NCBI GenBank assembly: GCA_020724425.1 | Contig: DYGY01000008.1 | Coordinates: 4,151-68,150, forward strand | Direction of reading: 5' to 3' | Source: Thermaerobacter marianensis | GTDB lineage: Bacteria; Bacillota; Sulfobacillia; DVGY01 | Length of the DNA stretch: 64,000 nt | Shown: positions 6,585-38,853 of the stretch, piece by piece | How the letters are laid out: every line of letters begins with the position of its first letter | How positions within the stretch are numbered: position 1 is the first letter of the stretch | Position numbers and translations under genes: made by a program | The notes under the pieces: model-generated | What the model saw: only the letters and a program-made list of their open reading frames with translations | Told to the model about the DNA's origin: nothing | Databases searched by the model: none

Positions 6585-6608
6585 ATGCCACCAGGATCAC
6601 AGGGTTGA
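6585..6608 (+). CDS. Putative leader peptide MPPGSQG (uORF, copy 2)
   Basis: RBS GGAGGTG then ATG CCA CCA GGA TCA CAG GGT TGA; same length and stop as copy 1. Confidence 0.55.
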   Translation: MPPGSQG

Positions 6609-6653
6609 TGTTGTGGCGTTGATGAAAACTACGAAAAGGAGGATTTAAAGCGC

Positions 6654-7388: not shown

Positions 7389-8033
7389 ATGGCATTCCTA
7401 CAGTATATGGATAGTTTGTCTATTGGTGTTGCTTTAGTCCTGATGATTGTTACTTTGTGGCGTATAACTCAGGTTAACAAGATGCAGCATACTCTTTGGT
7501 TTGCAGGCTCTGTTTCCTTGATGTTTGTTGTAGCGGTTAGTACTAGAGATGTGTCCTTAGCAGTTAACCCTTATATTCAGGGAATTATTGCTTTTAGCCT
7601 AGGCTTATTAGCAGCAGGGTATTTAACTGCATTGGATAAAGAAGGGAAATATGCTCAATATTTCACTATCTATATCTTAACAGCAGCACTGGTGTTTTCG
7701 ATGGCAATGCATTATGTGGGCTCAGTGACTGGTGATGTACTTGGTACACCATTGTTTCTTTTATCCATTGGTTTGAGTCTTGTGGTTCTTGTTCTAGCTC
7801 CGCTGGCAATGATGTCAGCTGCAGGATTTCATGCTATCTGGGCAGCAGTTGGTTGGGTTTTAATTACTATTGCTGGATGGTATCAATGGTCCGCGGCGAC
7901 AGAAAGATTAGTTTTGGAAGGGGATTCTCTAAGTTCAATTGTATTTACTTTGTTAACAATTGGTTTAATCTTGATATTAGTATCTTTTGCAAATACCAAG
8001 TGGCTTGCTGAAGATGCTGATATGGCAGCGTAA
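7389..8033 (+). CDS. Multi-TM membrane protein of unknown function (cassette gene B, copy 2)
   Basis: Paralog of 5741-6394 over its full length. Confidence 0.9.
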   Translation: MAFLQYMDSLSIGVALVLMIVTLWRITQVNKMQHTLWFAGSVSLMFVVAVSTRDVSLAVNPYIQGIIAFSLGLLAAGYLTALDKEGKYAQYFTIYILTAALVFSMAMHYVGSVTGDVLGTPLFLLSIGLSLVVLVLAPLAMMSAAGFHAIWAAVGWVLITIAGWYQWSAATERLVLEGDSLSSIVFTLLTIGLILILVSFANTKWLAEDADMAA

Positions 8034-23778: not shown

Positions 23779-24012
23779 TTAATCTCAGTTCCTACTTCAA
23801 CAGGTGATGTCCTAACTCTGTAATTACTGTAGAAAAGTGTTTTCGACATCCATTTCAGCTAGAACAGGTTAGGATACTTGTATGGCTTAAGTATGATCTT
23901 CCTTAACCTAGAGGCTGTAATTAAGAACTCCGTAGGTAGGCGTCTTAGTAAAAGGCTTGTGTTGGACAAAATTAATGGAGGAGCATCTCTGAACTGTTTA
24001 GGTTCAGTTTTT

Positions 24013-24948
24013 TTAATAATCCATGCGTTTTCTTTGTCTTTGGCAATAGTGTTGTTCATTGAGTGTGGTTATTTCGGTTAAGAACTCTTGTTGTAATGGT
24101 GTTAGGTCGGTATTGTTGGGTCTTAGGACTACCAAGTTATAGCTCAGGGACAGTCCTTTAATAGGTATGGTGTGGAGTAGTCCAGAATCTCTTTCTCTTC
24201 GGACGGCAAGGCAAGAGAGTATTGATGCTGCTCGTCTTCCTTGAACCATGCATTTGATGCCATCGATGCTACCAAACTCCATTAGTATTTGCAGGTTCTT
24301 AAGGGCGAGGTTATGTTTGCTTAGTGCTTTTCTAATGATTGCATGAGTTCCACTGTTTTCTTCAGGTAATATTAGCGGGATGGTTAGTAGTTCTTGTAGA
24401 GTTATGTACTCTTTTTGAAGCCATTCTTTTGTGGGGGGGACTACAAGTGCCAGTTCGTCTTTAATAATCTGTTCGGCGGAATATTGTTTGTCTAGTTTGT
24501 CTTCTTCCACTAAAGCAATATCAATGAGGCCGTCATTGAGTTTTGAAAGTATTGCTTCTGTATTATCAACAACTAGTTTGATAGTTGCATCGGGGTGAGA
24601 GTTCTTGAAGTATAGGAGAGTACAGGGGAGTATATATCCTCCAAGTGTTGTACAGGCTCCAATAGATAGTTTTTCTGAGGATCTACGAATTTCTTCTAGT
24701 TCTTGTTCAAGGTTTTCTTTTAGGTTTAGGATTCTCTGACCGGTGTTATAGAGGCGTTCACCTGAAGGTGTTAGTAGGACCCCTTGTCTTGTTCTTTGCA
24801 GAAGGGTAACACCTAATGCAGATTCTATACCTAGAATACGTTGACTTAGTGAGGGCTGACTCATATGTAGGTTCTGAGCAGCTTTGCTGATGCTCTTTTC
24901 TTGAACCACCATGCAGAAAGCGCGTAAATCATCAAGACTTAGGTTCAT
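24013..24948 (-). CDS. LysR-family regulator (CysL/selenium-metabolism-associated type), copy 1
   Basis: SISKAAQNLHMSQPSLSQRI HTH, GACTTLGGYILP, ENSGT; divergent from the rhodanese-reductase operon. Confidence 0.93.
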   Translation of the reverse strand: MNLSLDDLRAFCMVVQEKSISKAAQNLHMSQPSLSQRILGIESALGVTLLQRTRQGVLLTPSGERLYNTGQRILNLKENLEQELEEIRRSSEKLSIGACTTLGGYILPCTLLYFKNSHPDATIKLVVDNTEAILSKLNDGLIDIALVEEDKLDKQYSAEQIIKDELALVVPPTKEWLQKEYITLQELLTIPLILPEENSGTHAIIRKALSKHNLALKNLQILMEFGSIDGIKCMVQGRRAASILSCLAVRRERDSGLLHTIPIKGLSLSYNLVVLRPNNTDLTPLQQEFLTEITTLNEQHYCQRQRKRMDY

Positions 24949-25022
24949 GGTATCACCCCTATAGCGTAGTAGATGTCTTAATTGTAACAGATACCAGATA
25001 ATTATTCAATTTCCTTATATCT

Positions 25023-25058
25023 ATGAGAAATAGTTATAGCGGGATAGGTAAAGAGTAT
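25023..25058. promoter_or_regulatory. Putative tandem LysR T-N11-A boxes, copy 1
   Basis: ATGAGAAATAGTTAT and ATAGGTAAAGAGTAT; similar pair at 31016-31049. Confidence 0.4.
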
Positions 25059-25216
25059 TATGCTTAAAGGCAATATTTTAGGACTTTGATAGCTATCTAG
25101 AAGTATTAAAGGCAAGGTAGGAAGTGGTTAGACACCCTTGTCAGGCTTTGTAGGACCTATAAGATAAGGTTAACAGGTTGTATCGAAAAATAATGCTAAG
25201 GAGTGAAGTAGTTGTG

Positions 25217-25726
25217 ATGAAGAAACTGCAGGTATTGGTAGTTGTCTTGTTGATGCTGGTTCTAGTTGGCGGTTGTAGTCAATCAGGTCAGAATGAGCCG
25301 GTGACTCCTGTAGCTCAGGCTGTTCCAGTTGATAAGGATGCGATTGTGTATGATGCTGTAGAAGGATTCTTTAAAGCACTTGGTACTAAAGAAGGGGTTT
25401 TAGGTAACAACTTGATTGAGGCCGATCAATTGTATGCGGAACTAAGTCAGGATCCGGGTGCATACTTTGTTGTTGATATTCGTGGGGCAGATGATTTTAA
25501 GGCAGGGCATATAGAGGCCGATTCTATTATAAATCTTCCTTTCCGGGAAGTCGGTGACAATTTGCATCTATTACCCAAGGATAGAACTATTGTGGTTACC
25601 TGTTATACCGGTCAAACTGCTGGGCAGACAATTGCAGCTTTAAGAATTGCTGGTTATGATGCAATTTCTTTGAGAAACGGAATGGTTAATGGCTGGTTAA
25701 AGAACGAACTGCCTGTCACTAACTAG
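25217..25726 (+). CDS. Rhodanese-domain lipoprotein (1a)
   Basis: Lipobox LVGGC, VDIR..DF..GHI, active-site CYTGQTA. Confidence 0.92.
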   Translation: MKKLQVLVVVLLMLVLVGGCSQSGQNEPVTPVAQAVPVDKDAIVYDAVEGFFKALGTKEGVLGNNLIEADQLYAELSQDPGAYFVVDIRGADDFKAGHIEADSIINLPFREVGDNLHLLPKDRTIVVTCYTGQTAGQTIAALRIAGYDAISLRNGMVNGWLKNELPVTN

Positions 25727-25743
25727 ACTGGGGAGGGACTGTT

Positions 25744-26271
25744 GTGGGTAGATTTCTAGTTATCTTCCTCGTAATCATTAGTTTATTCGTGAGTGGGTGT
25801 GCTCAAGAGGAACCTAAGAATGTGGTGCCTGAGTCACAAGTGTTTGCGGGTGAAGTTACGGTTGAAGGTACGGTAAAGAGATATTTTGCTGATTCTCCGG
25901 ATCGGGGAATGAACATGATTGATGCAAAAGTCTTATTAGAGGAGCTAGAGACCAATAGGGATCAGTATTTCCTTGTAGATATTCGCAGTCGGGAGGATTT
26001 TGAAAAGGGTTATATTGACTCAACTGATCTTAACGTAGCTTTTGCACAGGTCGGATATAATCTTGATCTTCTCCCTAGGGATAAGACGATAGTTGTTGGT
26101 TGTTATTCAGGTCAGACGGCAGGCCAGGTGGTGGCAGCACTGCGGATAGCTGGTTATGATGCTTATAGCATTCGCGGTGGTATTACCGGTGGTTGGATTA
26201 ATGCGGGATTTCCTACAGTCGGTGCACCGGTTGTGGATCCAAGTGCTGAGAGTTCCGGTGGTTGTGGTTAA
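25744..26271 (+). CDS. Rhodanese-domain lipoprotein with C-terminal GGCG tail (1b)
   Basis: Lipobox FVSGC, active-site CYSGQTA, C-terminus SAESSGGCG. Confidence 0.92.
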   Translation: MGRFLVIFLVIISLFVSGCAQEEPKNVVPESQVFAGEVTVEGTVKRYFADSPDRGMNMIDAKVLLEELETNRDQYFLVDIRSREDFEKGYIDSTDLNVAFAQVGYNLDLLPRDKTIVVGCYSGQTAGQVVAALRIAGYDAYSIRGGITGGWINAGFPTVGAPVVDPSAESSGGCG

Positions 26272-26286
26272 GGGGGAGGGATACCT

Positions 26287-28470
26287 GTGAAGAAAATGAA
26301 CAGAAGAAGTTTTATTAAGTTGAGTACTGTAGCTATGGCAGCTGCTTCAGGGACAGTCTATACTTCGAAGGCTAAGTGGACTGAGGCTGCTAGCAAGACT
26401 CCTCCATCTATAACAAGGAGTTTTTCTGTATGCAATAGTTGTGGAAACCGTTGCAACATTATTGCTTTTAAGCGACAGGGTCGACTCTGGCGAATTAGTG
26501 GTAATCCCAGGGATAATAAGACGGGTGGAAAGATTTGTGCCAGAGGGCATGCTTATGCGGCAATGGTTTATGATCGGTATCGTTTAGGTACCCCTTTAAA
26601 GAGGATGTCTAATGGTTTTGAACCGATTTCCTGGGAACAAGCTTATGAGGAGATTTCTGATAAGCTTAAGGACATCTTACGTAAGAATGGACCTGAAGCT
26701 ATTTTCTGGTCTGAGTATAGCAAGCCAATAAGTAATTTTTATGGTGCTAGGTTTATGGCAGCTTTAGGTTCGCCTAACTGGACAACGCATGCTTCTACTT
26801 GTTTTGCTGCTAGGAATGTTGGTTTTAATCATACTCTTGGTGGTCTACCTACTGGGGATTATGAGAATACCAAATATGTGGTCTTTATTGGTAGGGCTCC
26901 TGCAGATGGTATCGGTACTTCTATTCTCAAGGGCTTGCCAATGGCTAAACAGAAAGGTGCAAAGGTTGTCGCTGTAGATCCACGACTGAGTTATAGTGCT
27001 AATTCGCTAGCTAATGAGTGGATGGCCATAAGACCTGGAACAGATCTTGCTTTGCTGTTAGCTTGGATCCACATAATGATTAAAGAAAATCTATATGACA
27101 GGGAATTTGTTAGCAAGCATACAGTTGGTTTTTCTGATCTGGAAGCAGCTGTTTCGCAATACACTCCTGCTTGGGCTGCTGGTATAACGGGATTACCGGA
27201 AGAACAGATTAGCAGAGTGGTTAAAGAGATGGCTGCTGCTAAACCTGCTGCTTTTGTTGAACCAGGCTGGCATGCCGCTTATGGTTCTAATTACAGGAAT
27301 AGTACACAGACGGCTAGGGCTATAGCGATTATTAATGCTTTGCTTGGGAATTTGAATCAGCCTGGAGGTCTCTGTTTCTATTCAGGAGCTAATCTTGGGA
27401 GTCTTGATAGTAGCAGGCATCAGGCACCGCCGAATTCTCCGTATAAACGGGTTGATGGTGCAGGAGTAGCTGGTAAGTATCCACTTGCTCTTGGTAGTGG
27501 CTTACATCATCTCTTACCGGGTCTTGCTAAGGAAGGTAAATTCAAGGCAGGTTTCTTCTACTCTATTAATCCTGCTAGGACTGTTCCTGATAGGGAGTAT
27601 GTGGTATCTGGATACAAGAATTTAGAGTTGTCTGTAGTTATTGACTGGCAGTTCTCTGAAACTGCAGAACATGTTGCTGATTATATCCTGCCTGAGAGTC
27701 ATCCGCTGGAGAGAGATGGAATTGTTGAGCCGATATCTGCTAGGATGCCACAGGTAAGTATGCAGAGCAAGGCTATTGAACCTGTTCATCCTGGTGCTAG
27801 GGGTTTAGACAGGATTGTTACGGAATTGGCTCAGGCTATGGGTTTCGGTCGCTATTTTGATTTTAAGTTGGATGATCTTAATAAGGCTATGCTATTTCCG
27901 TTAAAGCTCTTTCCTGTACACTTGCAACAGAGGGGTCCTCAAGTGGCCGGTGGTGCATGGGACTATGGTCAAACCATGTTTAGAACTCCTTCAGGGAAGG
28001 TTGAATTAGCCAGCGGGACTTTTGCGGAACATGGATTTAGCAAGGTGCCTATATGGGAGAGTCCTTTAATTGAACCTTCAAGTGGAGAGTTCCGGATAAT
28101 TCATGGTCACCAGGCGTATCTTACCCATTCACAAACCATTAATAATCCTTATTTGGTTTCCATAGCTAAGGACTATCATGGTGAAGCTATCTGGATAAAT
28201 AGCAAGAAGGCAAGGGAATTAGGAATTGCTGATGGGTCAGACGTTATTGTTAGTGCTAAGGGTTATGAGAACAAGGTACGCTGTAAGGTTACCGAGAGAA
28301 TTCATCCAGAGGCGATTTTTGTGCCTGCAGGCTATGGTAGTTTTGCTAGCAAGCTGGAACGAGGATTTGAGCTCGGTATTAGTATGAATGATTTTGTACC
28401 TCATGCAAGTGAGGATATTTCTGGGCATGCCATGATGCAAGAAGCTGTAGTTAGCATCAGGAAGGCATAG
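26287..28470 (+). CDS. Tat-exported Mo-bisMGD oxidoreductase catalytic subunit, PsrA/PhsA/SrrA family, copy 1
   Basis: NRRSFIK twin-arginine signal, CxxCxxxC...KICARG FS0 motif, HASTCF Cys ligand region, RPGTDLAL, C-terminal molybdopterin-binding domain. Confidence 0.92.
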   Translation: MKKMNRRSFIKLSTVAMAAASGTVYTSKAKWTEAASKTPPSITRSFSVCNSCGNRCNIIAFKRQGRLWRISGNPRDNKTGGKICARGHAYAAMVYDRYRLGTPLKRMSNGFEPISWEQAYEEISDKLKDILRKNGPEAIFWSEYSKPISNFYGARFMAALGSPNWTTHASTCFAARNVGFNHTLGGLPTGDYENTKYVVFIGRAPADGIGTSILKGLPMAKQKGAKVVAVDPRLSYSANSLANEWMAIRPGTDLALLLAWIHIMIKENLYDREFVSKHTVGFSDLEAAVSQYTPAWAAGITGLPEEQISRVVKEMAAAKPAAFVEPGWHAAYGSNYRNSTQTARAIAIINALLGNLNQPGGLCFYSGANLGSLDSSRHQAPPNSPYKRVDGAGVAGKYPLALGSGLHHLLPGLAKEGKFKAGFFYSINPARTVPDREYVVSGYKNLELSVVIDWQFSETAEHVADYILPESHPLERDGIVEPISARMPQVSMQSKAIEPVHPGARGLDRIVTELAQAMGFGRYFDFKLDDLNKAMLFPLKLFPVHLQQRGPQVAGGAWDYGQTMFRTPSGKVELASGTFAEHGFSKVPIWESPLIEPSSGEFRIIHGHQAYLTHSQTINNPYLVSIAKDYHGEAIWINSKKARELGIADGSDVIVSAKGYENKVRCKVTERIHPEAIFVPAGYGSFASKLERGFELGISMNDFVPHASEDISGHAMMQEAVVSIRKA

Positions 28471-28481
28471 GGGGTGTAATT

Positions 28482-29186
28482 GTGGGTCAGTATGCAATGA
28501 TTATTGATAGTAATAGGTGTGTGAGTTGTTTTGCCTGTCGAGTTGCCTGTCAGCTACAGAATGACTTACCTCCAGAATTGAGTCGAATTAAGTTTACCGA
28601 ACAGGAAAAAGGGGTATTCCCCGATACAAGAGTACTGGTGTTACCCACTCAGTGCATGCACTGTGATGATCCGCCCTGTGTTGAGGTGTGTCCAACAGGT
28701 GCCTCGTTTAAGAGGGAGGATGGTTTGGTACTAATTGATTATGAAAAATGTATAGGTTGTCAGTATTGTGTTAGTGCTTGCCCTTATAGTGCAAGATCCT
28801 ATAACCCTAGGACTAAAACGGTAGATAAGTGTACCTTCTGTGCTCCCCGTTTGGCTCAGGGTCAGGGACCTGCCTGTGTTGAAGCATGTATAACAGGGGC
28901 AAGGATATTTGGTAAGGTTGATGAAGAGGGTTCACCGGTACAGGCGCTACTTAAAGATCAAAGGACTAACCAGGTTAAAGGGACCTTGATGTATTATCGT
29001 GTAGGTGAGAAATGGCTAGATGAAATACCTGCTGATGCACATCGTCCTGCCTATGCAAGCCGATTGGTTACCAGGCAACCTGTTGGTACAGCTCTCTTGG
29101 GATTATCTGCTGGAGCAGTAGCTGCCAGTTTTGTTCTCACAAGAGTACGCCGGTCTGGGGAGGGGGATCATGATGAAAAGGATTAA
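28482..29186 (+). CDS. 4x[4Fe-4S] electron-transfer subunit (PsrB/PhsB-like) with C-terminal TM helix, copy 1
   Basis: CVSCFACRVAC, CMHCDDPPCVEVCP, CIGCQYCVSACP, KCTFC...PACVEAC. Confidence 0.93.
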   Translation: MGQYAMIIDSNRCVSCFACRVACQLQNDLPPELSRIKFTEQEKGVFPDTRVLVLPTQCMHCDDPPCVEVCPTGASFKREDGLVLIDYEKCIGCQYCVSACPYSARSYNPRTKTVDKCTFCAPRLAQGQGPACVEACITGARIFGKVDEEGSPVQALLKDQRTNQVKGTLMYYRVGEKWLDEIPADAHRPAYASRLVTRQPVGTALLGLSAGAVAASFVLTRVRRSGEGDHDEKD

Positions 29187-29859
29187 GAGATTCAATGTGG
29201 CGGAAAGAGTAGCTCATTGGAGTCAGGCTTTTGCCTTTGTAGTCCTATTTCTAACTGGTGCAGGTTTAATCTTTCAGTTCTTTGGTGACTTCTTAGGTGT
29301 TGAGGGATTAAGAAGAGCAGGTTTATTGCATCGAGTTATCGGTATTTCTTTCCCGGTGATTGTGCTAGCTGTATTAGTATTGCTCACTCCAAAGACTACT
29401 AGAGAATGGTTAAAATCCTTAGTTTCCTGGAACAAGGATGATATACGGTTCTTAATGTTGTTTCCTAAGGAGTTTTTTGGTGGTCATGTAAAGTTACCTC
29501 CACAGGGGAAGTTTAATGCCGGAGAGAAAATCAACTCATTGTTAGTTATATTTTCGTCGGCAATTATGGTGATTACAGGGTGGATGTTGATTTTTAGGCA
29601 TCTATTTCCTGCCTGGATGGTTGTCTGGATACATCCTGTTCATGCTGGTACCGCGTTACTGTTAGCTGCGGTGATTCTTGCTCATGCTTATCTGGGTCTA
29701 GGGCATCCTAGCTCGCGGGAAGCTATGAAAGGTATGGTTAAGGGTACGGTGAGCGAGACGTTTGCTAGGGAACATCATCTATTATGGTATGAACAGGTTA
29801 AGGATACCGATTACGTTGTTGTTGAGAAAGAGGTTGAGCAAACAGCGTTGGAGAGTTAG
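29170..29859 (+). CDS. Di-haem cytochrome b membrane anchor (PhsC/FdnI-like), copy 1
   Basis: RFNVAERVAHW, LHR, GKFNAGEK, VHA...AHAY, M.KG.VS...A..HH..W. Confidence 0.9.
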   Translation: MMKRIKRFNVAERVAHWSQAFAFVVLFLTGAGLIFQFFGDFLGVEGLRRAGLLHRVIGISFPVIVLAVLVLLTPKTTREWLKSLVSWNKDDIRFLMLFPKEFFGGHVKLPPQGKFNAGEKINSLLVIFSSAIMVITGWMLIFRHLFPAWMVVWIHPVHAGTALLLAAVILAHAYLGLGHPSSREAMKGMVKGTVSETFAREHHLLWYEQVKDTDYVVVEKEVEQTALES

Positions 29860-29902
29860 ACAAGACCCCTGCACTTTGCAGGGGTTCTCTTTTTATGGAG
29901 GT

Positions 29903-30838
29903 CTATTCGTCTTTAATTGAAGTGTTGCAGAATCTTCTTTTTTCTGGATCTTCCATGAGATCTAGAAAACGCGTTTGTAGATCACTTAAAGGTTGGTCTT
30001 GCTGGTAAAGAATGATGAAGTCATAAATAAAGGAGAGGCCTTTGATTGGTACGACGTGTAGCAGGCCGGCGGCCAGTTCTTTACGTATAACAAGTCTTGA
30101 GAGCAAAGCAACCCCTTGGTTAGCTTCAACCATGGCTTTAATAGCATCTACACTATTAAGTTCCATAATGACGTTTAGCTTTTCTGGGTTAACTCCGTGT
30201 TGCGAGAGAATGCTCTCTATCACCTTTCTTGTACCGGAACCCTTTTCTCTGCTTAAGAAAGGGAGGTTAACTAGTTCTGCTAGTTCTAGGTATTCTCTTT
30301 CTTTCCACTCTTGAGTTGGTGGTACTATTAGTACCAGTTCATCTTGTGTTAGATGGCTTGATGTCATTTTTGGTATTTCAATGTTTTCTTCAACTAGTGC
30401 CATATCAATTGTGCCATCAAGGAGTTTTGATATTACCTTCTCGGTATTATCTACCACCATGCGAATGTCTGCGTCTGGATTGAGTTCTTTGAAGTATACC
30501 AGGGTACATGGTAGTGCATATCCACCTAAAGTAGTACTAGCACCTATAATTATTTGATCTTTTGCTGAGGTTCTCAGTCTTTCTAGTTCTTCATCAAGTC
30601 TCTCTCCGAGGTTGAGCATTCTCTGACCAAGATTGTAGAGGATCTCTCCTCCTGCAGTCATTGTGACTCCTTTGTGTGTTCTTTGCAAAAGAGTTATTCC
30701 CATCGATTGTTCTAGTGAACCTATTCTCTGACTTAAAGCAGGCTGGGTCATGTGTAGTTTTTTGGCAGCTTTGCTAATGCTTTTTTCCTCCACTACAATA
30801 CAAAACGCTTCTATATCTTCTAGGTTAATGTTCATCAT
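29903..30838 (-). CDS. LysR-family regulator, copy 2
   Basis: SISKAAKKLHMTQPALSQRI HTH, GASTTLGGYALPC, REKGSGTR. Confidence 0.93.
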   Translation of the reverse strand: MMNINLEDIEAFCIVVEEKSISKAAKKLHMTQPALSQRIGSLEQSMGITLLQRTHKGVTMTAGGEILYNLGQRMLNLGERLDEELERLRTSAKDQIIIGASTTLGGYALPCTLVYFKELNPDADIRMVVDNTEKVISKLLDGTIDMALVEENIEIPKMTSSHLTQDELVLIVPPTQEWKEREYLELAELVNLPFLSREKGSGTRKVIESILSQHGVNPEKLNVIMELNSVDAIKAMVEANQGVALLSRLVIRKELAAGLLHVVPIKGLSFIYDFIILYQQDQPLSDLQTRFLDLMEDPEKRRFCNTSIKDE

Positions 30839-31015
30839 ATCACCATCCTTTTGGGTCCTTTATAAGACCCATGTTCTATTATATCAATACTACTTTAGAA
30901 CTAAAAAGGGGTATGAAAGTTCTAGCAATCACAAGCCCTGAAAGGCCTAATATTACTAGTTTTCGGCAATTTAGCTTAGTTTAGGAATTAGTATTTTATC
31001 AGGTCATCGCCCGAT

Positions 31016-31049
31016 ATGCAATCTGCTTATAGGTATAATATTGCGTTAT
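31016..31049. promoter_or_regulatory. Putative tandem LysR T-N11-A boxes, copy 2
   Basis: ATGCAATCTGCTTAT and ATAATATTGCGTTAT in the divergent intergenic region. Confidence 0.4.
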
Positions 31050-31206
31050 GAAGAGTTTTGTCAAGTGGCCTGAAATGCTTATGGTATAAGGGATTACGAT
31101 ATCTTCGAAGGTAGTATGAAAGCTGTCTTGTCAGCTTGCCAAATAGGAGTACTCGAGTATAATTGAATTAAGGAAAGTGAACACATTCACAAAGGGGGCG
31201 TAATTA

Positions 31207-31713
31207 ATGAAAAAGAGAGCATTGTGGATTCTTACTTTTGTACTAATTCTTTCTGTAGCTTTGATTGCTGGTGGTTGTGGTCAGGAACAACCGGTTCAGA
31301 ACACAGAAACACCAGCACCACAAGTAGAAATTGATGAAGATGCAATTGTTTATGAAAGAATCATTAGTTATTTTGATGGGTTAAAGCAGAACAACAATAT
31401 GATTGCTCCAAGTGTGGTTTATGAGGCATTGCAGAGTGATCCAGGGGCATATTTCATCCTTGATATTAGAGCCGCTGATGATTATGCTAAGGGTCATATC
31501 GAAGCAGCTAGTATTCTTAATATAGCTTGGGCAGAGGTTGGTAGCAATATGCACCTATTACCAAGGGATCGGACAATTGTTGTTACCTGCTATAGTGGGC
31601 AGTCTGCAGGGCAGACAGTAGCTGCTTTGAGGTTAGCTGGTTATGATGCAATATCTTTGCAGGGTGGCATGAACAATGGTTGGTTGAAAGCTGAACTACC
31701 GATAGTTGATTAG
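31207..31713 (+). CDS. Rhodanese-domain lipoprotein (2a)
   Basis: Lipobox IAGGC, LDIR..DY..GHI, CYSGQSA; paralog of 25217-25726. Confidence 0.92.
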   Translation: MKKRALWILTFVLILSVALIAGGCGQEQPVQNTETPAPQVEIDEDAIVYERIISYFDGLKQNNNMIAPSVVYEALQSDPGAYFILDIRAADDYAKGHIEAASILNIAWAEVGSNMHLLPRDRTIVVTCYSGQSAGQTVAALRLAGYDAISLQGGMNNGWLKAELPIVD

Positions 31714-31740
31714 GAATTAAATGACCAGGGAGGGAAATTC

Positions 31741-32343
31741 ATGAATAACATTCGCGTATATTCGTTGCGGTTTGCTACCCTGGTCCTTTTGCTATCTTTA
31801 CTTGCCCTCACTTGGGGTTGTGGGTTAGAGGGGTCGGCTGGTCCGGCCCCTGCAAACCCCCAAGGAACTGAAGGTCTGGTAATCAAGGTAAGTGAAGTGG
31901 ACCAGAGTACGGCTGATGAGATTGTTTACAAACATGTAACAGAATATTTTAGTAGTTTGCAACGTGAGGGAGAACCAGCTTTTAATCTTGTTGATCCAGG
32001 TATTGCTTATGAGAATCTCAATAAGAGTCCCGAACAGTATTTTTTGGTTGATTTGAGAAGCAGAAGTGATTTTGAAGTTGCATTCGCCGCTGAGACTGAT
32101 TTAAATATAGCTGCTGCTGCACTTGCAGAGAATATGGATCTTCTACCTAAGGATAAGACCATTTATGTTGGCTGTTATACAGGGCAAACTGCAGGTCAGG
32201 TTGTAGCTGCATTAAGGGTTGCTGGTTATGATGCTTATAGTATTAGAGGTGGCATTACTAATGGTTGGATAGCTGCAGGCTTACCTGTTGTTGGTGCTCC
32301 TGCTAACACATCTGATAGTGCAGCTGGAGGTTGTGGTGGTTAA
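31741..32343 (+). CDS. Rhodanese-domain lipoprotein with C-terminal GGCGG tail (2b)
   Basis: Lipobox-like LTWGC, CYTGQTA, C-terminus DSAAGGCGG; paralog of 25744-26271. Confidence 0.92.
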   Translation: MNNIRVYSLRFATLVLLLSLLALTWGCGLEGSAGPAPANPQGTEGLVIKVSEVDQSTADEIVYKHVTEYFSSLQREGEPAFNLVDPGIAYENLNKSPEQYFLVDLRSRSDFEVAFAAETDLNIAAAALAENMDLLPKDKTIYVGCYTGQTAGQVVAALRVAGYDAYSIRGGITNGWIAAGLPVVGAPANTSDSAAGGCGG

Positions 32344-32374
32344 AGCGTTCTCTAGTGGTAAGGAGGGAAGATAG

Positions 32375-34585
32375 GTGAAACTGAATCGTAGAACATTCCT
32401 GAAATTGTCGGCTGCAACAGCGTCTATGGCAGCTTTAGGCGCTAGCAAATATAGATCGGTTGATAACTGGGCTAGTGCTAATGAAAGACCTTCTAATATC
32501 ACCACAGCATATTCTGTGTGTAATAGTTGTGGTAACCGGTGTGGAATTATGGCGTACTTGAGGAATGGACGGTTGTGGAGAATTACTGGTAATCCTGATG
32601 ACAATAAGTCTGGGGGTAAGATTTGTACTAGAGGGCATGGGTATGCTCAGATGGTTTATGATAAGTATCGTTTAAGCCAACCGTTGAAACGTACAAGTGA
32701 TGGTTCGTTTGTGGAGATCCCCTGGGAGCAGGCTTATCAGGAGATTGGTGATAAGTTAATGGGTGTTGTCCGTAAGTATGGTCCTCAATCTGTGTTCTGG
32801 AGTGAATATAGCAAGCCAATCTCTAATTTCTATGGTGCCAGATTGATGGCTGCTTTGGGATCCCCCAACTGGACTACTCACTCATCTACCTGTTTTGTGG
32901 GTAGGAATGTTGGTTTTGATTATACTTTAGGTGGTTTACCGAGTGGTGATTATGAAAATACCAAGTATGTTGTATTTGTTGGTCGTTCACCTGCTGATGG
33001 CATGGGGTTAAATATTCTTAAAGGTTTAGGTGTGGCTAAGAAGAAGGGTGCCAAAGTTGTTTCAGTAGATCCAAGGCTCAGTTACAGTGCCGGTGTCTTA
33101 GCTGATGAATGGGTGGCAGTTAAGCCTGGTACAGATTTGGCATTGCTATTGGCCTGGATGAATGTATTAATTGCTGAAAATCTTTATGATAAAGGATTTG
33201 TAGAAAACTATACAGTTGGTTTTGCTGAACTAAAGGAAATGGTTAAGCAATATACCCCTGAGTGGGCTGAGACCATCACAGGGGTTAAGGCAGAACAGAT
33301 TAGGAGAATTGGTCGGGAGTTAGGAGCAAATAGACCAGCGGCATTCTTGGAACCAGGCTGGCATGCAGCATATGGTTCTAACTATGCCAATAGTACTCAG
33401 ACAGCAAGAGCAACAGCCATTGTAAATGGTCTGCTTGGTAACATCAACAAGCCAGGTGGTCTATGTTTTTATAACAGGGTGAGTTTTGGGGGTTTGAATC
33501 CAGAGCTTTATCCAACTCCTCCAGCATCACCTTATGAAAGAGTTGATGGTGCTGGTGTTAAGGGTAAGTATCCCTTAACTTTATCAACTGGTTTGCATCA
33601 CCTGTTACCTGGTCTGGCTAAGGAAGGTAAACTGAAGGCTGGTATCTTCTATTCGGTTAACCCGGGAAGAACAGTACCTGATCGGAACTATGTGATTGAG
33701 GGATATAAGAACCTAGAATTGACTATCGTAATTGACTGGCAGATGTCTGAGACTGCTGAACAGTTTGCTGATTATGTATTACCAGAGAGCCATCCAATGG
33801 AGAGAGATGGTATAGTTGAAGCTATTGCTAGCAGTAGGCCTCAGGTTACGATGCAGGCTAAGGTAATTGACCCTGTTCATTCAGGTGGAAGGGGTCTAGA
33901 TCGCATTGTTAGTGAGTTGGCTACAGCAATGGGTCTAGAAAGATTCTTCAACTTTACTCTAGAGGATTTAAATAAGGCCATGCTATTCCCCTTAGGACTA
34001 TTCCCGGTTCATCTTAAGAGCAGGGGTATTGTGGATGGTGATGCAGGGCAGTGGCATTATGAGTTTCCTGTTGATGGTAGTGGTAAGCCAAGTTTAAGAA
34101 CTAAGTCGGGTAAGGTAGAGTTTTTTAGCTCTAGTTTTGCTGAGCATGGTCATAATCCTTTACCAGCATGGCAGGCACCTAAGGTGATGCCATCAGGGGA
34201 TAAGTTAAGGATGATTCATGGTCATCAAGCCTATCATACTCATGCCCAAACAATGAATAATCCATATTTGATGAGTATTACCAAGGACTATGAGGGTGAT
34301 TCCATATGGTTAAATACAGAGACTGCCAAAAGGTTGGGTATTAGTGATGGCGATACAGTACAGGTTAGTGGTAATGGTTGGGAGGCAAAATCTAAGGTTA
34401 AGGTAACTCAGAGGATCCATCCAGAGGCGTTGTTTGTACCTGGTGGCTATGGTGGTTTTGCCAAGAGTCTAGTTAGAGGTTATGGTATTGGGGTTAATAT
34501 AAATGACTTCCTAAAGCATGATACGGAACCAATTTCGGGGCATGCGATGATGGAAGAGGTTTTGGTTAGTGTAAAGAGGGCATAA
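32375..34585 (+). CDS. Tat-exported Mo-bisMGD oxidoreductase catalytic subunit, PsrA/PhsA/SrrA family, copy 2
   Basis: NRRTFLK, CNSCGNRC...KICTRG, HSSTCF, KPGTDLAL. Confidence 0.92.
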   Translation: MKLNRRTFLKLSAATASMAALGASKYRSVDNWASANERPSNITTAYSVCNSCGNRCGIMAYLRNGRLWRITGNPDDNKSGGKICTRGHGYAQMVYDKYRLSQPLKRTSDGSFVEIPWEQAYQEIGDKLMGVVRKYGPQSVFWSEYSKPISNFYGARLMAALGSPNWTTHSSTCFVGRNVGFDYTLGGLPSGDYENTKYVVFVGRSPADGMGLNILKGLGVAKKKGAKVVSVDPRLSYSAGVLADEWVAVKPGTDLALLLAWMNVLIAENLYDKGFVENYTVGFAELKEMVKQYTPEWAETITGVKAEQIRRIGRELGANRPAAFLEPGWHAAYGSNYANSTQTARATAIVNGLLGNINKPGGLCFYNRVSFGGLNPELYPTPPASPYERVDGAGVKGKYPLTLSTGLHHLLPGLAKEGKLKAGIFYSVNPGRTVPDRNYVIEGYKNLELTIVIDWQMSETAEQFADYVLPESHPMERDGIVEAIASSRPQVTMQAKVIDPVHSGGRGLDRIVSELATAMGLERFFNFTLEDLNKAMLFPLGLFPVHLKSRGIVDGDAGQWHYEFPVDGSGKPSLRTKSGKVEFFSSSFAEHGHNPLPAWQAPKVMPSGDKLRMIHGHQAYHTHAQTMNNPYLMSITKDYEGDSIWLNTETAKRLGISDGDTVQVSGNGWEAKSKVKVTQRIHPEALFVPGGYGGFAKSLVRGYGIGVNINDFLKHDTEPISGHAMMEEVLVSVKRA

Positions 34586-34610
34586 ATAGACCCGGAAAGG
34601 AGTGCGGCCC

Positions 34611-35306
34611 ATGTCTAAGTATGCAATGTTAATTGATGTTAATGAATGTATAGGCTGCTATGCTTGTCGGGTAGCCTGTCAGACTACAAATGACCTTCCT
34701 TCAGATATTAGTCGTATTAAGTTCATGGAAAAGGAGAAAGGGACATTTCCAGAGACAGAGATAGTTGTTTTGCCTACTCAATGTATGCATTGTGATGAAC
34801 CTGCTTGTGTTGATGTTTGCCCTACTGGAGCTTCCTTTAAGAATGAAGATGGTTTGGTTCTAATTGATTATGATAAGTGTATTGGTTGTAAGTATTGCAT
34901 CACTGCTTGTCCTTATGATGCAAGAACTTTCAATACCTCTACAGGAAAAGTTGATAAGTGTAATTTCTGTGCACCTAGAGTACAGAGAGGTATGCAACCT
35001 GCCTGTGTGGAGGCTTGTGTCAATGATGCCAGGTTCTTTGGTGAGGTAGATGACTCCAATTCACCTATTAGCAAGTTGATTGCTGAAGCAGATACTGCTA
35101 AAGTGGGAGGAACCTCGTTCTATTACAAGCTTCCTGAAGGCTGGGATGAGAGTTTGCCAGAGGATGCTATAAAACCTGCTTATGTTAAGAATCTAACAGA
35201 GAGAGTGCATCCTGCAGGTAAGGCTTTGTTAGGATTATCGGCAGGAGCTGTAGCAGCAAGCTATGTGATGACAAGAGTCAATGGCGGACATGAGGATGAA
35301 GAATAG
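34611..35306 (+). CDS. 4x[4Fe-4S] electron-transfer subunit, copy 2
   Basis: CIGCYACRVAC, CMHCDEPACVDVCP, CIGCKYCITACP, KCNFC; C-terminal hydrophobic helix. Confidence 0.93.
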   Translation: MSKYAMLIDVNECIGCYACRVACQTTNDLPSDISRIKFMEKEKGTFPETEIVVLPTQCMHCDEPACVDVCPTGASFKNEDGLVLIDYDKCIGCKYCITACPYDARTFNTSTGKVDKCNFCAPRVQRGMQPACVEACVNDARFFGEVDDSNSPISKLIAEADTAKVGGTSFYYKLPEGWDESLPEDAIKPAYVKNLTERVHPAGKALLGLSAGAVAASYVMTRVNGGHEDEE

Positions 35307-35323
35307 TTGAGGTGGTGACTACT

Positions 35324-36028
35324 ATGTCTAAAAAGGGCAATGTAAGGATAAAGCGTTTTAATTTGGCCGAGAGGGTAGCACACTGGAGTCAAGCCTTTGC
35401 ATTTGTTGTTCTCTTTCTCACTGGCTCTGCTCTAATCTTTCGTGGTTATGGTGCTTTGCTAGGAGCAGAGGGACTGAGAATTGCCGGGATGATCCATAGA
35501 ATTATTGGTGTTTCTTTTCCAATAATTATTCTGGCTATTCTGCTCCTACTGACTCCAAAGACAACCAAGGAGTGGCTACGTTCGGTATTTAGTTGGAACA
35601 TGAGTGATATTAAGTTTCTGGCTTTATTCCCCAAAGAGTTCTTTGGTCTTAAGGTGAAATTGCCTGCTCAGGGGAAGTTTAATGCTGGTGAGAAGATAAA
35701 CTCCTTGATTACCATATTTGGATCCATGTTGATGGTTATTACCGGCTGGATGTTGATTCTACAGGATAGGTTCTCACCTTCAGTTATTGCTTGGGTTCAT
35801 CTTTTGCATGCTTCAGGAGCCTTACTGATGGGAGCTGTTATTATCGCTCATGCTTATCTGGCTTTAGGACATCCTGGTTCCCGGGAAGCTATAAATGGTA
35901 TGATCTCTGGTACTGTTAGTGAAAAGTTTGCAAAAGAACACCATGAACTCTGGTATAATGAAGTTAAGGATACTAATAGGGTAGTTGTTGGAGAAGAGGT
36001 TCAAGATTTGAAAGAACGAGAAGCATAG
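35324..36028 (+). CDS. Di-haem cytochrome b membrane anchor (PhsC/FdnI-like), copy 2
   Basis: RFNLAERVAHW, IHR, GKFNAGEK, LHA...AHAY. Confidence 0.9.
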   Translation: MSKKGNVRIKRFNLAERVAHWSQAFAFVVLFLTGSALIFRGYGALLGAEGLRIAGMIHRIIGVSFPIIILAILLLLTPKTTKEWLRSVFSWNMSDIKFLALFPKEFFGLKVKLPAQGKFNAGEKINSLITIFGSMLMVITGWMLILQDRFSPSVIAWVHLLHASGALLMGAVIIAHAYLALGHPGSREAINGMISGTVSEKFAKEHHELWYNEVKDTNRVVVGEEVQDLKEREA

Positions 36029-36147
36029 CTTCTTAGAGATGGTTGGGAGACCTGTAATAGGTCTCCCACAAAAATATATGATATGTAAGAGGAATTGTGA
36101 TATGATAAAGAGAGCAGAAATTATTGTCAATCGTGGAGGTGTCCCAG

Positions 36148-36375
36148 TTGTTTGGTGGAAAAATAGGTCTATGGGAATTAGTTCTTATTTTAGCAATTGC
36201 ATTAGTGATTTTTGGGCCACAGAAGTTACCGGAGATGGGACGTTCATTGGGTAAGGGTATTAAGGAGTTTCGTAAAGCAACAAAGGAATTAACTGAGGAA
36301 ATTGATATCGATGAAGAACCAAGCAAGGAGAAGAAAGTAAAGGAAGAAAAAACGGAAGAAGATAAGAAGGAGTAA
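36148..36375 (+). CDS. tatA: Twin-arginine translocase TatA
   Basis: GLWELVLIL...[23 protein letters not shown]; TTG start after GGAGGTG. Confidence 0.95.
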
Positions 36376-36402
36376 CCTTCATATTAGCCTGGGGGCAGGG
36401 TT

Positions 36403-37143
36403 ATGGATGAAAGGCAGATTAGAGAAGATGAGGGGATGACCCTTGTTGAACATCTTGAAGAATTGCGAAAACGAGTAGTTCGGATTATTGTGGTTAGTAT
36501 TCTGGCTATAGGTGTAAGTTTTGTTTTTGCTTCTGATTTGCTGGCTTATATAGTTGAACCGGTAGACTCCCTGGTTATTTTAACACCGGGTGAGGGTTTT
36601 TTTGCTACTTTGCGGCTGGCAATAATGATGGGTTTGGCTTTAGCATCACCCTTTATTATTTATCAGCTAGTTGCTTTTATATTGCCTGCTTTGACTAAGC
36701 AGGAAAGGAAGTATTTATATGTACTGCTGCCTTTTGGATACATACTCTTCTGGGCAGGAGTACTTTTTGCGTATTTTGTTATTGTTCCCTATGTGTATCG
36801 GTTCTTTATTGGCTTTACTTATGAGGGGTTAATGGAACCATATATTTCTGTAAGTAGTTATCTAGGGTTTGTTCTTGGGGTAATTATTCCTTTTGGTATT
36901 ATTTTTGAGTTACCGATTCTTGTTTCTTTGTTAACCATTATTGGTCTTGTCACTCCAGATATTTTAAAGAAATATAGGAAGTATGCTATTCTGCTGGTTT
37001 TTGTGGTGGCTGCCTTTTTTACCCCACCTGATCCTATTTCTCAGGGGTTAATGGCAGGTCCTTTGATTCTTCTATATGAGTTTAGTATTTCGATATCAAA
37101 GATAGTGTACAAGCGTAGGCTAAGGAGAGAGGATTTTGAGTAG
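36403..37143 (+). CDS. tatC: Twin-arginine translocase TatC
   Basis: MTLVEHLEELRKR, FILPAL...E, FELP, TPPDPISQ, LYE. Confidence 0.96.
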   Translation: MDERQIREDEGMTLVEHLEELRKRVVRIIVVSILAIGVSFVFASDLLAYIVEPVDSLVILTPGEGFFATLRLAIMMGLALASPFIIYQLVAFILPALTKQERKYLYVLLPFGYILFWAGVLFAYFVIVPYVYRFFIGFTYEGLMEPYISVSSYLGFVLGVIIPFGIIFELPILVSLLTIIGLVTPDILKKYRKYAILLVFVVAAFFTPPDPISQGLMAGPLILLYEFSISISKIVYKRRLRREDFE

Positions 37144-37654
37144 AGTGCCTGTCTTTTCTATTGTGGGTAGGAGTAATAGTGGGAAGACTACCCTGCTTGA
37201 GAGAGTAATTAGGGGTTTAAGGGAACTAGATATACGTGTAGCCACTATTAAACATGATACTCATGGTTTTGATATTGATCATAAGGGTAAAGATACGTAT
37301 CGTCACAGGGAGGCAGGTGCTGAGGTGGTGTTGATCTCCTCAGTAGAAAGATTGGCTTTTATGCAGGAATTAAGGGAAGAGTTGGAGTTAGTGGAGTTAG
37401 TAGCTCTGGTGGAAGAGAGGGCTAAGGTAGATCTTATCCTTACTGAAGGCTATAAGACGGGTAGTGTTCCCAGGTTAGAGGTATTTAATCAGGGTAGATA
37501 CACTGAGCTTGTTTCTGATTTGGAAGCAACTCATCTTACCGCCATAGTTACTGATAGGCCAGAGAGTATTGAGATTGATAAACCTGTCTATCATTGGGAT
37601 GATGTTGATGGTGTGGTTAGACATATTTTAGAGGTGACAGGATTAGGAGGATAG
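37136..37654 (+). CDS. mobB: Molybdopterin-guanine dinucleotide biosynthesis protein MobB
   Basis: GRSNSGKTTL, IKHDTHGFDID..GKDT, EGYK. Confidence 0.94.
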   Translation: MSRVPVFSIVGRSNSGKTTLLERVIRGLRELDIRVATIKHDTHGFDIDHKGKDTYRHREAGAEVVLISSVERLAFMQELREELELVELVALVEERAKVDLILTEGYKTGSVPRLEVFNQGRYTELVSDLEATHLTAIVTDRPESIEIDKPVYHWDDVDGVVRHILEVTGLGG

Positions 37655-37659
37655 GAGTA

Positions 37660-38280
37660 ATGCTTGCCGTTGTCTTAGCCGGAGGGCAGAGCAGACGTAT
37701 GGGTCAGGATAAGGCTCTTCTTACCCTGGCAGACAAGACATTTATTGAGACTATTTATGATGAGCTCCGGGGATATTTCTCTGAGATAGTTATCTCAGCT
37801 AACAATCCGGAGCCTTATTTTCATCTGGGATTAAAGATATTAAGAGATGAATATGAGGGTCTTGGTCCTTTAGCAGGTATTCATAGTGGTCTTTCCTATG
37901 CACAAAAAAGGGGCAAGAAGCATATTTTTGTGGTGAGTTGTGATATGCCGATGATCTCTGGAAGACTAGCTTACAGGATGGTAGAGCTTTTGGAAGAGGA
38001 CTATCAGGCGGTTGTACCTAAGGCTGGTGATAGGATCTTCCCTACCTTCAGTGCCTATAGTGTAAGGGCATTTGCTGAGATTGATCAGGCATTAAGAGAG
38101 GAAAGATTACGTTTACAGGCTATCTTAAGGGAATTAAATACATACTGGCTGTTGGAGGATGAAATTGCTTTATATGGAGAGCCACTAAAGATACTAAGGA
38201 ATGTCAATAATCTTAAAGAGTATCTGGATCTCAGGGATATCTATGGAGAGGAAGAGGATAGTGAGAGAAATAAGGGCTGA
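37660..38280 (+). CDS. mobA: Molybdenum cofactor guanylyltransferase MobA
   Basis: LAGGQSRRMGQDKA, GPLAGI, SCDMP, NVN. Confidence 0.94.
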   Translation: MLAVVLAGGQSRRMGQDKALLTLADKTFIETIYDELRGYFSEIVISANNPEPYFHLGLKILRDEYEGLGPLAGIHSGLSYAQKRGKKHIFVVSCDMPMISGRLAYRMVELLEEDYQAVVPKAGDRIFPTFSAYSVRAFAEIDQALREERLRLQAILRELNTYWLLEDEIALYGEPLKILRNVNNLKEYLDLRDIYGEEEDSERNKG

Positions 38281-38842
38281 AATGTATGGAATAATGGCAG
38301 AATGCTTTAGAGAACCTTCAGAGAGTTTCATTGAAGATGTCAATGAGGGAATACTGGAAACAGAGGTTTCAGAATTGCTTCATAGTTTGAATATAACTGT
38401 GGAGGGATTAGGACAAGTTGATTTAGAGGCTGAGTATTATAATCTTTTTGTTAACCCTCAGGGACAAAGATTGGTTCCTGTGGAGTCTATTTATCGTCCT
38501 TGGACCATGTCAGATGAGGAGAGTATTCTTGGGAAGACTAAAGGATATCTGATGAGTGATTGGGCGATGCATCTCATGAATGTTTATGAAGATATGGGGA
38601 TTGAGCTACCAGCTGAATATCAGTCAAAACCTGATCATTTGACCCTTGAGTTAGAGTTTATGGCTCTTTTGCTACAGTTAGGGGAAGAGGAGGTTTCTAA
38701 GCAATTCTTTAGGGACCATCTTGATTGGTTAGGGGACTTGTTCACTGATGTTAAAGAGAGGTATTCACTAGGACCCTTTTATACATATGTTTTCGGAGTT
38801 CTAGAGGCATTCTGGAGACATGAAAAGGACCTCATTGGTTAG
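38243..38842 (+). CDS. TorD/DmsD-family molybdoenzyme chaperone
   Basis: EY..LF, PVESIY, PDHLTLELEFM, F..HLDW. Confidence 0.9.
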   Translation: MERKRIVREIRAEMYGIMAECFREPSESFIEDVNEGILETEVSELLHSLNITVEGLGQVDLEAEYYNLFVNPQGQRLVPVESIYRPWTMSDEESILGKTKGYLMSDWAMHLMNVYEDMGIELPAEYQSKPDHLTLELEFMALLLQLGEEEVSKQFFRDHLDWLGDLFTDVKERYSLGPFYTYVFGVLEAFWRHEKDLIG

Positions 38843-38853
38843 GAGGAACAGCT

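Follow-up and report, generated by a model that had tools for sequence, protein, structure and literature searches.

Putative rhodanese lipoproteins in two Psr/Phs-type molybdenum reductase operons of a Thermaerobacter genome, one of each pair ending in a SoxY-like cysteine tail

How sulfur species that are insoluble or unstable are delivered to the buried molybdenum (Mo) site of polysulfide and thiosulfate reductases is poorly understood beyond Sud and SbdP. Sud, a periplasmic polysulfide-sulfur transferase that works with PsrABC in Wolinella succinogenes, and SbdP of Aquifex aeolicus are small, single-domain extracytoplasmic rhodaneses with one catalytic cysteine that feed a sulfur reductase carrying Mo-bis(pyranopterin guanine dinucleotide) (Mo-bisPGD). 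Here, we analyzed a 64,000-nucleotide stretch of a Thermaerobacter marianensis assembly (GCA_020724425.1; contig DYGY01000008.1, positions 4,151 to 68,150), hereafter the window, in which two paralogous + strand units occupy positions 24013-36028. Behind a divergent LysR regulator, each unit encodes, in this order, a first rhodanese (Rhd1), a second rhodanese (Rhd2), a Mo-bisPGD catalytic subunit (MoA), a four-cluster iron-sulfur (Fe-S) subunit and a cytochrome b. In both units, Rhd2 extends beyond its domain into a glycine-rich tail that carries a cysteine, and we tentatively favor the reading, at a shade under an even chance, that Rhd1 and Rhd2 form a Sud-like sulfur-delivery pair, with sulfane sulfur reaching the Mo site on the Rhd2 arm.

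Rhodaneses are described as suppliers of sulfur to sulfur reductases in an excerpt of PMC6378623, which cites Aussignargues 2012 and has Klimmek 1999 on Sud among its references. According to an excerpt of PMC6067878, SoxY holds its substrates on the cysteine of a C-terminal GGCGG, and a passage of PMC12481199 reports that the Bacillus selenite reductase operon srrABCDEF includes two rhodanese proteins. Rhodanese-assisted reductases of the Psr/Phs kind are already known; a SoxY-like arm on a rhodanese is the new part. Full-text literature searches, for which supplements and most subscription papers lay beyond reach, found no description of a rhodanese with a C-terminal cysteine arm. We computed the gene order, domains and cysteine inventory of the units, the predicted disorder of the tail, its conservation and convergent origin, and a modelled docking of Rhd2 on its reductase. 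The features that carry the argument are as follows.

25178..25726, + strand: Rhd1a, tail-less rhodanese lipoprotein (PF00581, E 6.5e-11; VGGC; CYTGQTAGQ; Cys 33 and 142 only); the true start is probably an internal ATG (MKKLQVL...)
25744..26271, + strand: Rhd2a, rhodanese lipoprotein with a C-terminal linker (PF00581, E 1.4e-9; Cys 19, 120 and 174)
about 26221-26268, + strand: Rhd2a tail, with GGCG at 26257-26268 (read from the DNA)
26287..28470, + strand: MoA1, Mo-bisPGD catalytic subunit exported by twin-arginine translocation (TAT), PhsA/PsrA-like (Pfam Molybdopterin, Molydop_binding and Molybdop_Fe4S4)
31207..31713, + strand: Rhd1b, tail-less rhodanese lipoprotein (PF00581, E 4.6e-12; AGGC; CYSGQSAGQ; Cys 24 and 128)
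31741..32343, + strand: Rhd2b, rhodanese lipoprotein with a flexible tail (PF00581, E 1.4e-6; Cys 27, 145 and 198)
32293-32340, + strand: Rhd2b tail, with GGCGG at 32326-32340 (read from the DNA)
32375..34585, + strand: MoA2, TAT-exported Mo-bisPGD catalytic subunit, PhsA/PsrA-like (Pfam families including TAT_signal)
residues 531-550 of MoA2: predicted Rhd2 docking patch (complex model)

All four small proteins match the Rhodanese family PF00581 above its cut-off, and a Foldseek search with the Rhd2b model returned rhodaneses as its top matches (3gk5; template-modelling (TM) score by target 0.89). In genomic order, their active-site loops read CYTGQTAGQ, CYSGQTAGQ, CYSGQSAGQ and CYTGQTAGQ, and the cysteine that opens the loop is invariant in these four proteins as well as in an 18-sequence alignment. 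Each protein begins with a hydrophobic signal, after which comes a lipobox-like x-x-G-C motif; VGGC, VSGC, AGGC and TWGC were read from the sequence. An earlier note on this DNA had assigned a CY(T/S)GQ(T/S)A site and a lipobox to all four; the active site was found throughout, and the lipobox assignment is softened to a lipobox-like motif, of which the TWGC of Rhd2b is an atypical case. From these motifs, the four rhodaneses are probably tethered to the membrane outside the cytoplasm.

The two members of each pair differ at their C-terminus. Rhd2a ends in SAESSGGCG (GGT GGT TGT GGT at 26257-26268, stop codon TAA at 26269-26271) and Rhd2b in DSAAGGCGG (GGA GGT TGT GGT GGT at 32326-32340, stop codon TAA at 32341-32343), whereas Rhd1a (...LPVTN) and Rhd1b (...LPIVD) stop directly after the domain, as the earlier note had read them. 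Rhd1a and Rhd1b contain the lipobox cysteine and the catalytic cysteine and none else; Rhd2a and Rhd2b contain exactly one more, the tail cysteine (C174 and C198, respectively). Mature Rhd1 would accordingly hold one free cysteine, the catalytic one, and mature Rhd2 two, catalytic and tail. Between the end of the domain (PxVGAP) and the GGCG, the linker has diverged (VVDPSAESS in Rhd2a, ANTSDSAA in Rhd2b), while the GGCG is identical. In the AlphaFold2 (AF2) model of Rhd2b, a low-confidence tether (residues 26-54) leads into a confident domain with an N-terminal helix (55-185), with a predicted local distance difference test score (pLDDT) above 94 over residues 80-180; the last ten residues reach a pLDDT of 43, and the tail is thus predicted to be flexible or disordered, in agreement with what had been claimed for it. 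A search of the ESM Atlas with Rhd2b residues 165-200 gave nothing at or above 0.9, and its structure matches covered only the last rhodanese helix.

In the role that we propose, these proteins would be like Sud and SbdP, rhodaneses that supply sulfur reductases (excerpt of PMC6378623). The window units differ from both in that each enzyme has two different operon-encoded rhodaneses, probably lipid-anchored, and in that Rhd2 has a second cysteine on a flexible, Gly-rich tail. A phmmer search against the PDB at E<=0.01 returned four matches, none of them Sud, and Sud was absent among the Foldseek matches listed. The tail itself is like that of SoxY as described in the excerpt of PMC6067878: Rhd2b ends in the identical GGCGG and Rhd2a in GGCG, each at the tip of a predicted flexible C-terminal stretch of a probably exported protein that would work with a sulfur enzyme. 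Unlike SoxY, however, Rhd2a and Rhd2b have a rhodanese fold (Pfam finds only Rhodanese), their context is reductive rather than oxidative, and Rhd2 would combine a carrier arm and a sulfurtransferase active site in one polypeptide. Of the SoxY parallel drawn in the earlier note, the shared GGCGG on a predicted flexible tail stands. Rhd2 itself is not a SoxY homolog, and the host genome, which is 92% complete, gave no match to the SoxY family.

The reductases are like PhsABC of Salmonella and PsrABC of Thermus (PDB 2VPW-2VPZ) in the TAT signal, the N-terminal Fe-S cysteine motif, the position of the Mo-ligand cysteine and the four-cluster Fe-S subunit, and like Phs in the cytochrome b anchor. 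The best solved relative of MoA2 is Thermus PsrA 2VPW (E 7e-107, aligned over residues 4-731), and C49, C52, C56 and C84 of the Fe-S motif, together with C173 at the Mo-ligand position, are invariant in 41 of 41 aligned sequences. PhsA is the best NCBIfam match of both catalytic subunits, which score under its equivalog cut-off (429.7 bits for MoA1 and 454.5 bits for MoA2, versus 694); on sequence grounds, MoA1 and MoA2 are related to PhsA without being its equivalogs. In contrast to PsrABC of Thermus and Wolinella, the anchor is a cytochrome b of the Ni_hydr_CYTB/FdnI type, not an NrfD-type PsrC, and in contrast to both PhsABC and PsrABC, rhodanese genes are built into the operons. Pfam, NCBIfam and the 2VPW match together uphold the claim that the rhodaneses, probably membrane-tethered, adjoin a Mo enzyme of the PsrA/PhsA type. 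In gene content, the units also resemble those for SrrABCDEF, the respiratory selenite reductase of Bacillus selenitireducens, where a Firmicute operon for a Psr/Phs-like Mo reductase likewise includes two rhodanese-domain proteins. Compared by description only, SrrE and SrrF are proteins of 38 and 45 kDa and the SrrC anchor one of 43 kDa, while the window rhodaneses have 168-200 amino acids (aa) and the anchors 238-242 aa; the Srr passage of PMC12481199, from which this description is taken, does not mention cysteine tails.

We then asked how far the tail is conserved. An ortholog with 96% identity (P0001) has a substitution in the linker and retains GGCGG, which, together with the diverged linkers and identical GGCG of the two paralogs, bears out the claim that the linker changes while the cysteine tail is kept. 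In a tree of rhodanese domains, the four window proteins formed one clade (97 in the Shimodaira-Hasegawa-like approximate likelihood ratio test, SH-aLRT), with Rhd1a and Rhd1b as sisters and Rhd2a and Rhd2b as sisters (98; 97 for the Rhd2 pair in a second tree). Because Rhd2a and Rhd2b group together, the split between Rhd1 and Rhd2, and the tail with it, predates the duplication of the operon. This duplication is old, given that the two units are only 50-69% identical per gene (Rhd1 55%, Rhd2 59%, MoA 65%, Fe-S subunit 60%, cytochrome b 69%, LysR 50%).

The wider family, for which the best 150 of 1375 HMMER matches at E<=1e-3 were taken, is made up of exported multi-rhodanese lipoproteins, whose domains number from 1 to 16. 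A cysteine within the last six residues occurs in 8 of the 163 family proteins examined, and in six of these eight (P0001, Rhd2a, P0014, P0035, P0136 and P0138) it lies after the domain end among small residues. P0035, a tandem-rhodanese lipoprotein, has the C-terminus PVVGESTGASTGGGCE, and P0286, which is 65% identical to it, has GESSKATSGGGCE; among 116 proteins examined after a search with P0035, a tail of the form PVVG-linker-GGGCE was found only in these two. Their next relatives, at 50% identity or less, stop at PVVT(E/P), and four other C-termini flagged in that set look truncated. A single clade uniting the Rhd2 pair with the last domains of P0035 and P0286 was rejected, as it costs 52 log-likelihood units (approximately unbiased (AU) test, p=0.004), and the design, in which PVVG is followed by about 10 residues that are small or polar and then by GG(G)C with one or two further residues, must hence have arisen at least twice. 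P0035 and P0286 are thus rhodanese lipoproteins with a GGC-type terminus of independent origin; few such proteins turned up among the 163 and 116. On this comparative evidence, the Rhd2 tail is more than chance: it outlasted the operon duplication, the 96% ortholog keeps it, and a similar tail evolved independently in another lineage of tandem-rhodanese lipoproteins. P0035 is known from a single 89-kb ENA contig, and a metagenome scan with it gave only two weak, unrelated loci (25-32% identity). Elsewhere in the family, P0136, a two-domain rhodanese lipoprotein of 355 aa, ends in ...GGAPKAAGCS and has a second domain without the catalytic cysteine (VGYYGTDANQ), and P0016-P0023 are giant members of up to 2327 aa that string together 6 to 16 rhodanese domains, every one of which has a site of the CYTGQTAGQ type.

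A complex model of MoA2 (residues 36-736) with Rhd2b (50-200) gave an interaction prediction score from aligned errors (ipSAE) of 0.71 (0.72, 0.68 and 0.71 in separate runs), the best of three controls reaching 0.01. Of 80 solved complexes, 58 reach that mark, as do 2 of 110 mismatched pairs; these counts hold only roughly here, because the model was run on our own alignments. Between runs, at least 75% of contacts recurred, with a partner pLDDT of at least 83. Confident contacts involved MoA2 residues 375, 378, 531, 538, 541, 543-546 and 549-550 on one side and Rhd2b residues 108, 117, 119-122, 133-134, 136 and 184-187 on the other, with 184-187 forming the tail base. To our knowledge, no rhodanese-Psr complex has been solved, and it therefore seems unlikely that the score reflects a memorized complex.

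The predicted interface is specific to this lineage on both sides. Rhd2a and Rhd2b share R108, T119, D120 and D133, where both Rhd1 proteins carry A, S, I and H. MoA1 and MoA2 share F538, F543, P544, V545 and H546 within a hydrophobic LFPL[G/K]LFPVH patch; in 39 aligned homologs, the shared residue is not one of the four most frequent at any of the five positions, and all 22 homologs from the phylum differ at the patch, being of the LAPLG[IL]T.[ED][EQ]L type or similar. Such lineage-specific residues on both sides are expected of a real, co-adapted contact. Charged or polar residues occupy the region of the patch in the 39 aligned and 22 phylum homologs.

According to the proposal, each unit would form a quinol-linked, outward-facing Mo-bisPGD reductase of the PsrA/PhsA type with an FdnHI-like Fe-S subunit and cytochrome b anchor, served from the same membrane face by the two lipid-tethered rhodaneses. 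Polysulfide, S0-derived sulfur or thiosulfate would supply sulfane sulfur, which Rhd1 and Rhd2 would bind at their catalytic cysteine as a persulfide, and Rhd2 would dock on the catalytic subunit. Its disordered tail (14-15 residues, about 45-50 Å when extended, by estimate) could then accept the sulfur from the rhodanese catalytic cysteine by transpersulfidation. In the form Cys-S-S(n)-, the tail cysteine would offer this sulfur to the Mo site for reduction to sulfide. The Gly residues that flank the tail cysteine may keep the arm thin, as argued for SoxY. We infer the lipidation, the identity of the substrate, that the tail cysteine is loaded and that the tail enters the Mo funnel. If true, the combination of a loading site and a SoxY-like, Gly-flanked cysteine arm in one rhodanese docked on the catalytic subunit would constitute a concrete, testable delivery mechanism, and the use of swinging-arm carrier chemistry would extend from sulfur oxidation to sulfur reduction. 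With two soluble domains and one enzyme, the system is compact; it is also duplicated in one genome and amenable to point mutants.

A bolder form of the proposal, possible but doubtful, makes the Mo enzyme a "carrier-persulfide reductase" whose true substrate would be a protein-bound persulfide instead of free polysulfide or thiosulfate; Rhd1 and Rhd2 would strip sulfane sulfur from thiosulfate or S0, and the Rhd2 arm would thread into the Mo funnel as a covalent carrier. Were this so, carrier-persulfide reduction would be the reductive mirror image of SoxYZ chemistry.

Several results weigh against a role of the arm in delivery to the Mo site. Tails of this kind are rare, with only two further lineages among the 163 and 116 family proteins. 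The earlier note had proposed that the arm reaches the Mo site; the complex model supports docking and puts the base of the tail at the interface, but residues 188-200 of Rhd2b, the tail proper, received no confident placement, which by itself weighs neither way. The note had also suggested that tails would co-occur with this clade of Mo enzymes, and here the survey went against it: among 29 loci of the closest homologs from the phylum (33-45% identity), none has a rhodanese open reading frame (ORF) directly beside the Mo gene (±1.5 kb), two distant loci (L132 and L134) having a partial rhodanese ORF at the far edge. Where a rhodanese lipoprotein does precede the Mo gene directly, in the Symbiobacteriaceae relatives L005, L053, L066 and L094 (MoA 36-39% identical), it is tail-less in every case, and the Mo subunits of these relatives lack a segment aligned to the docking patch. 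The tail is thus an accessory and not a requirement of this type of Mo enzyme, and its cysteine, though conserved in both paralogs and the 96% ortholog, is not a feature of rhodanese-linked relatives at large.

Furthermore, a distinct clade (SH-aLRT 99) of single-domain rhodaneses of about 127 aa, with no signal peptide, was present at 11 of 80 genome loci (L028, L030, L032, L033, L035, L036, L043, L063, L069, L073 and L087; the rhodanese ORF lies near position 6000 in most), in Clostridia such as Sedimentibacter, Tissierellales, Caminicellaceae, Haloimpatiens and Marinisporobacter. These cytosolic proteins end in a conserved P[VI]xx[GAST]C[SGDN]x, with the cysteine 4-6 residues past the domain end. 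No Mo enzyme was found within ±6 kb in the 11 loci, and no neighbor was common to more than 4 of them. As this clade keeps its cysteine with no Mo enzyme nearby, a C-terminal cysteine can evidently serve the rhodanese itself. The clade also has a second conserved motif, KGC, near the N-terminus. The record of one locus (L063) is labelled Lutibacter sp. B2 (Bacteroidota), yet its rhodanese nests within the otherwise clostridial clade, which may reflect a mislabelled or contaminated assembly or gene transfer.

The strongest alternative, rather unlikely in our estimate, starts from this observation: the tail cysteine of Rhd2 would act on its own rhodanese, bending back to the catalytic cysteine as a thiol that resolves or protects it. 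The two cysteines might join in a disulfide or trisulfide, a second sulfur atom might be stored, or the catalytic cysteine might be shielded from over-oxidation outside the cell, where neither thioredoxin nor glutathione is available. The reductase would go on receiving sulfur, either directly from the catalytic loop or in the form of free polysulfide. Besides the cytosolic clade, the tail-less rhodanese-linked Mo enzymes of the relatives and the absence of a confident contact for the tail tip fit this alternative, and cysteines on loops that shuttle between sites of one enzyme are known from CstB (excerpt of PMC12934615). Yet the extracytoplasmic tails are long, with 13-15 residues from the domain end to a Gly-flanked cysteine, which is more than a protein needs to reach its own active site. 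Moreover, the tail is confined to Rhd2, which the model docks on the Mo subunit with the tail base at the interface, whereas the sister Rhd1, which has the same loop, is tail-less.

It is improbable, in our view, that the tail cysteine instead forms an intermolecular bond, either as a disulfide scaffold to Rhd1, Rhd2 or the reductase, or as a ligand of a metal or metalloid (Se, As) in a reductase of selenite or another oxyanion. Covalently fused tandem rhodaneses are the common form of the family, and Sud is a homodimer according to the title of Lin et al. 2004, listed among the references of PMC6378623. The passage of PMC12481199 places two rhodanese genes in a Firmicute selenite reductase operon, and homologs of MoA with 42-48% identity are found in selenate- and arsenate-respiring genera, the genus names being those that the sources give. 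However, no partner cysteine is evident, since mature Rhd1 has its catalytic cysteine only; both tail codons are TGT, with no selenocysteine codon; and the best named matches of the Mo subunits are thiosulfate or polysulfide reductases.

Very improbably, lastly, the tail is a neutral, low-complexity leftover inherited by both paralogs with its cysteine there by chance: the rarity of such tails (some of the eight cysteine-ending proteins being apparently chance or truncated ends) and the weak statistics of a four-residue identity between Rhd2a and Rhd2b alone, which share ancestry, would allow it, but the linker diverged where the GGCG did not, PVVG, linker and GG(G)C arose independently in P0035 and P0286 and were kept at 65% identity, and the tail cysteine is the only extra cysteine in Rhd2.

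We return to delivery of sulfur by the Rhd2 arm as the favored reading and turn to the enzyme that it would serve. Homologs of MoA at 42-48% identity are widespread, occurring for example in Dendrosporobacter, Tepidibacillus, Rubeoparvulum, Thermosinus and Mesobacillus selenatarsenatis, and their source annotation, where named, is generic or "thiosulfate/polysulfide reductase chain A". The substrate of the window enzymes may be polysulfide or S0, thiosulfate, or selenite. Among 401 sampled genomes of the phylum, 40, the host included, contain a match to MoA at E<=1e-100. One homolog family (f43) has the same order of catalytic subunit, Fe-S subunit and cytochrome b, with a cytochrome b 53-58% identical. 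In the one locus of this family that was read (L118), a gene assigned by eye to a YeeE/YedE-like membrane protein (49-1224) lies directly upstream of the Mo gene, with no rhodanese there; at L005, a YeeE/YedE-like gene (198-1145, also by eye) is separated from the Mo gene by the tail-less rhodanese lipoprotein. The remaining genes of the two units and the genes 3' of them are as follows.

24013..24948, - strand: LysR-type regulator of unit 1 (Pfam HTH_1 and LysR_substrate; 50% identical to the unit-2 regulator)
28482..29186, + strand: four-cluster Fe-S subunit of unit 1 with a C-terminal hydrophobic helix (Pfam Fer4_11; TtrB/DsrO/NrfC-like NCBIfam matches, below cut-offs)
29131..29859, + strand: cytochrome b membrane subunit of unit 1, FdnI/PhsC type (Pfam Ni_hydr_CYTB, E 4e-20; TIGR01583 at 108.2 bits, below the cut-off of 115.85); the true start is probably downstream of the listed TTG
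29903..30838, - strand: LysR-type regulator of unit 2 (Pfam HTH_1 and LysR_substrate)
34602..35306, + strand: four-cluster Fe-S subunit of unit 2 with a C-terminal hydrophobic helix (Pfam Fer4_11; NCBIfam matches)
35312..36028, + strand: cytochrome b membrane subunit of unit 2, FdnI/PhsC type (Ni_hydr_CYTB, E 4.1e-22; TIGR01583 at 119.8 bits, at or above the cut-off of 115.85)
36124..38842, + strand: maturation genes tatA, tatC, mobB, mobA and a TorD/NarJ-type chaperone (Pfam TatA_B_E, TatC, MobB, NTP_transf_3 and Nitrate_red_del)

The chaperone gene is followed on its 3' side by a class-V aminotransferase-fold protein, which on reading appears NifS-like, and then by ThiI. An Rfam search of window positions 23500-39000 gave nothing at E<=0.1. 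The host genome comprises 2.08 Mb in 45 contigs, and its closest relatives in the searched collection lie at class level. By profile search, this 92%-complete genome encodes a total of six Mo-bisPGD enzymes and five rhodanese domains, and it gave no match to the sulfite reductase family PF01077, to YeeE/YedE (PF04143) or to SoxY (PF13501).

Elsewhere in the window, a duplicated two-gene unit at 5012-8033 encodes hydrophobic proteins of 242 and 217 aa in one copy and 244 and 214 aa in the other, none with a Pfam match; the first members are 59% identical. The GC skew across the 64 kb is very strong, mostly about +0.25 to +0.37, but close to 0 at 44-50 kb, a part whose genes run on the minus strand.

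Finally, environmental sequencing runs were compared as contigs, so that gaps in cover (X16, X10 and X15) carry no meaning. Runs on subsurface, sludge, soil, bioreactor and sediment samples, belonging to 10 studies, contained contigs near-identical to unit 2. Within one RNA library (X16), four 100%-identical pieces lie over Rhd1b, Rhd2b and the start of MoA2, a weak hint that unit 2 is expressed and no proof of transcription, because DNA can be present in such a library. One sediment run contained a relative on a long contig, with 56 letter differences and 5 gaps over 1545 bases.

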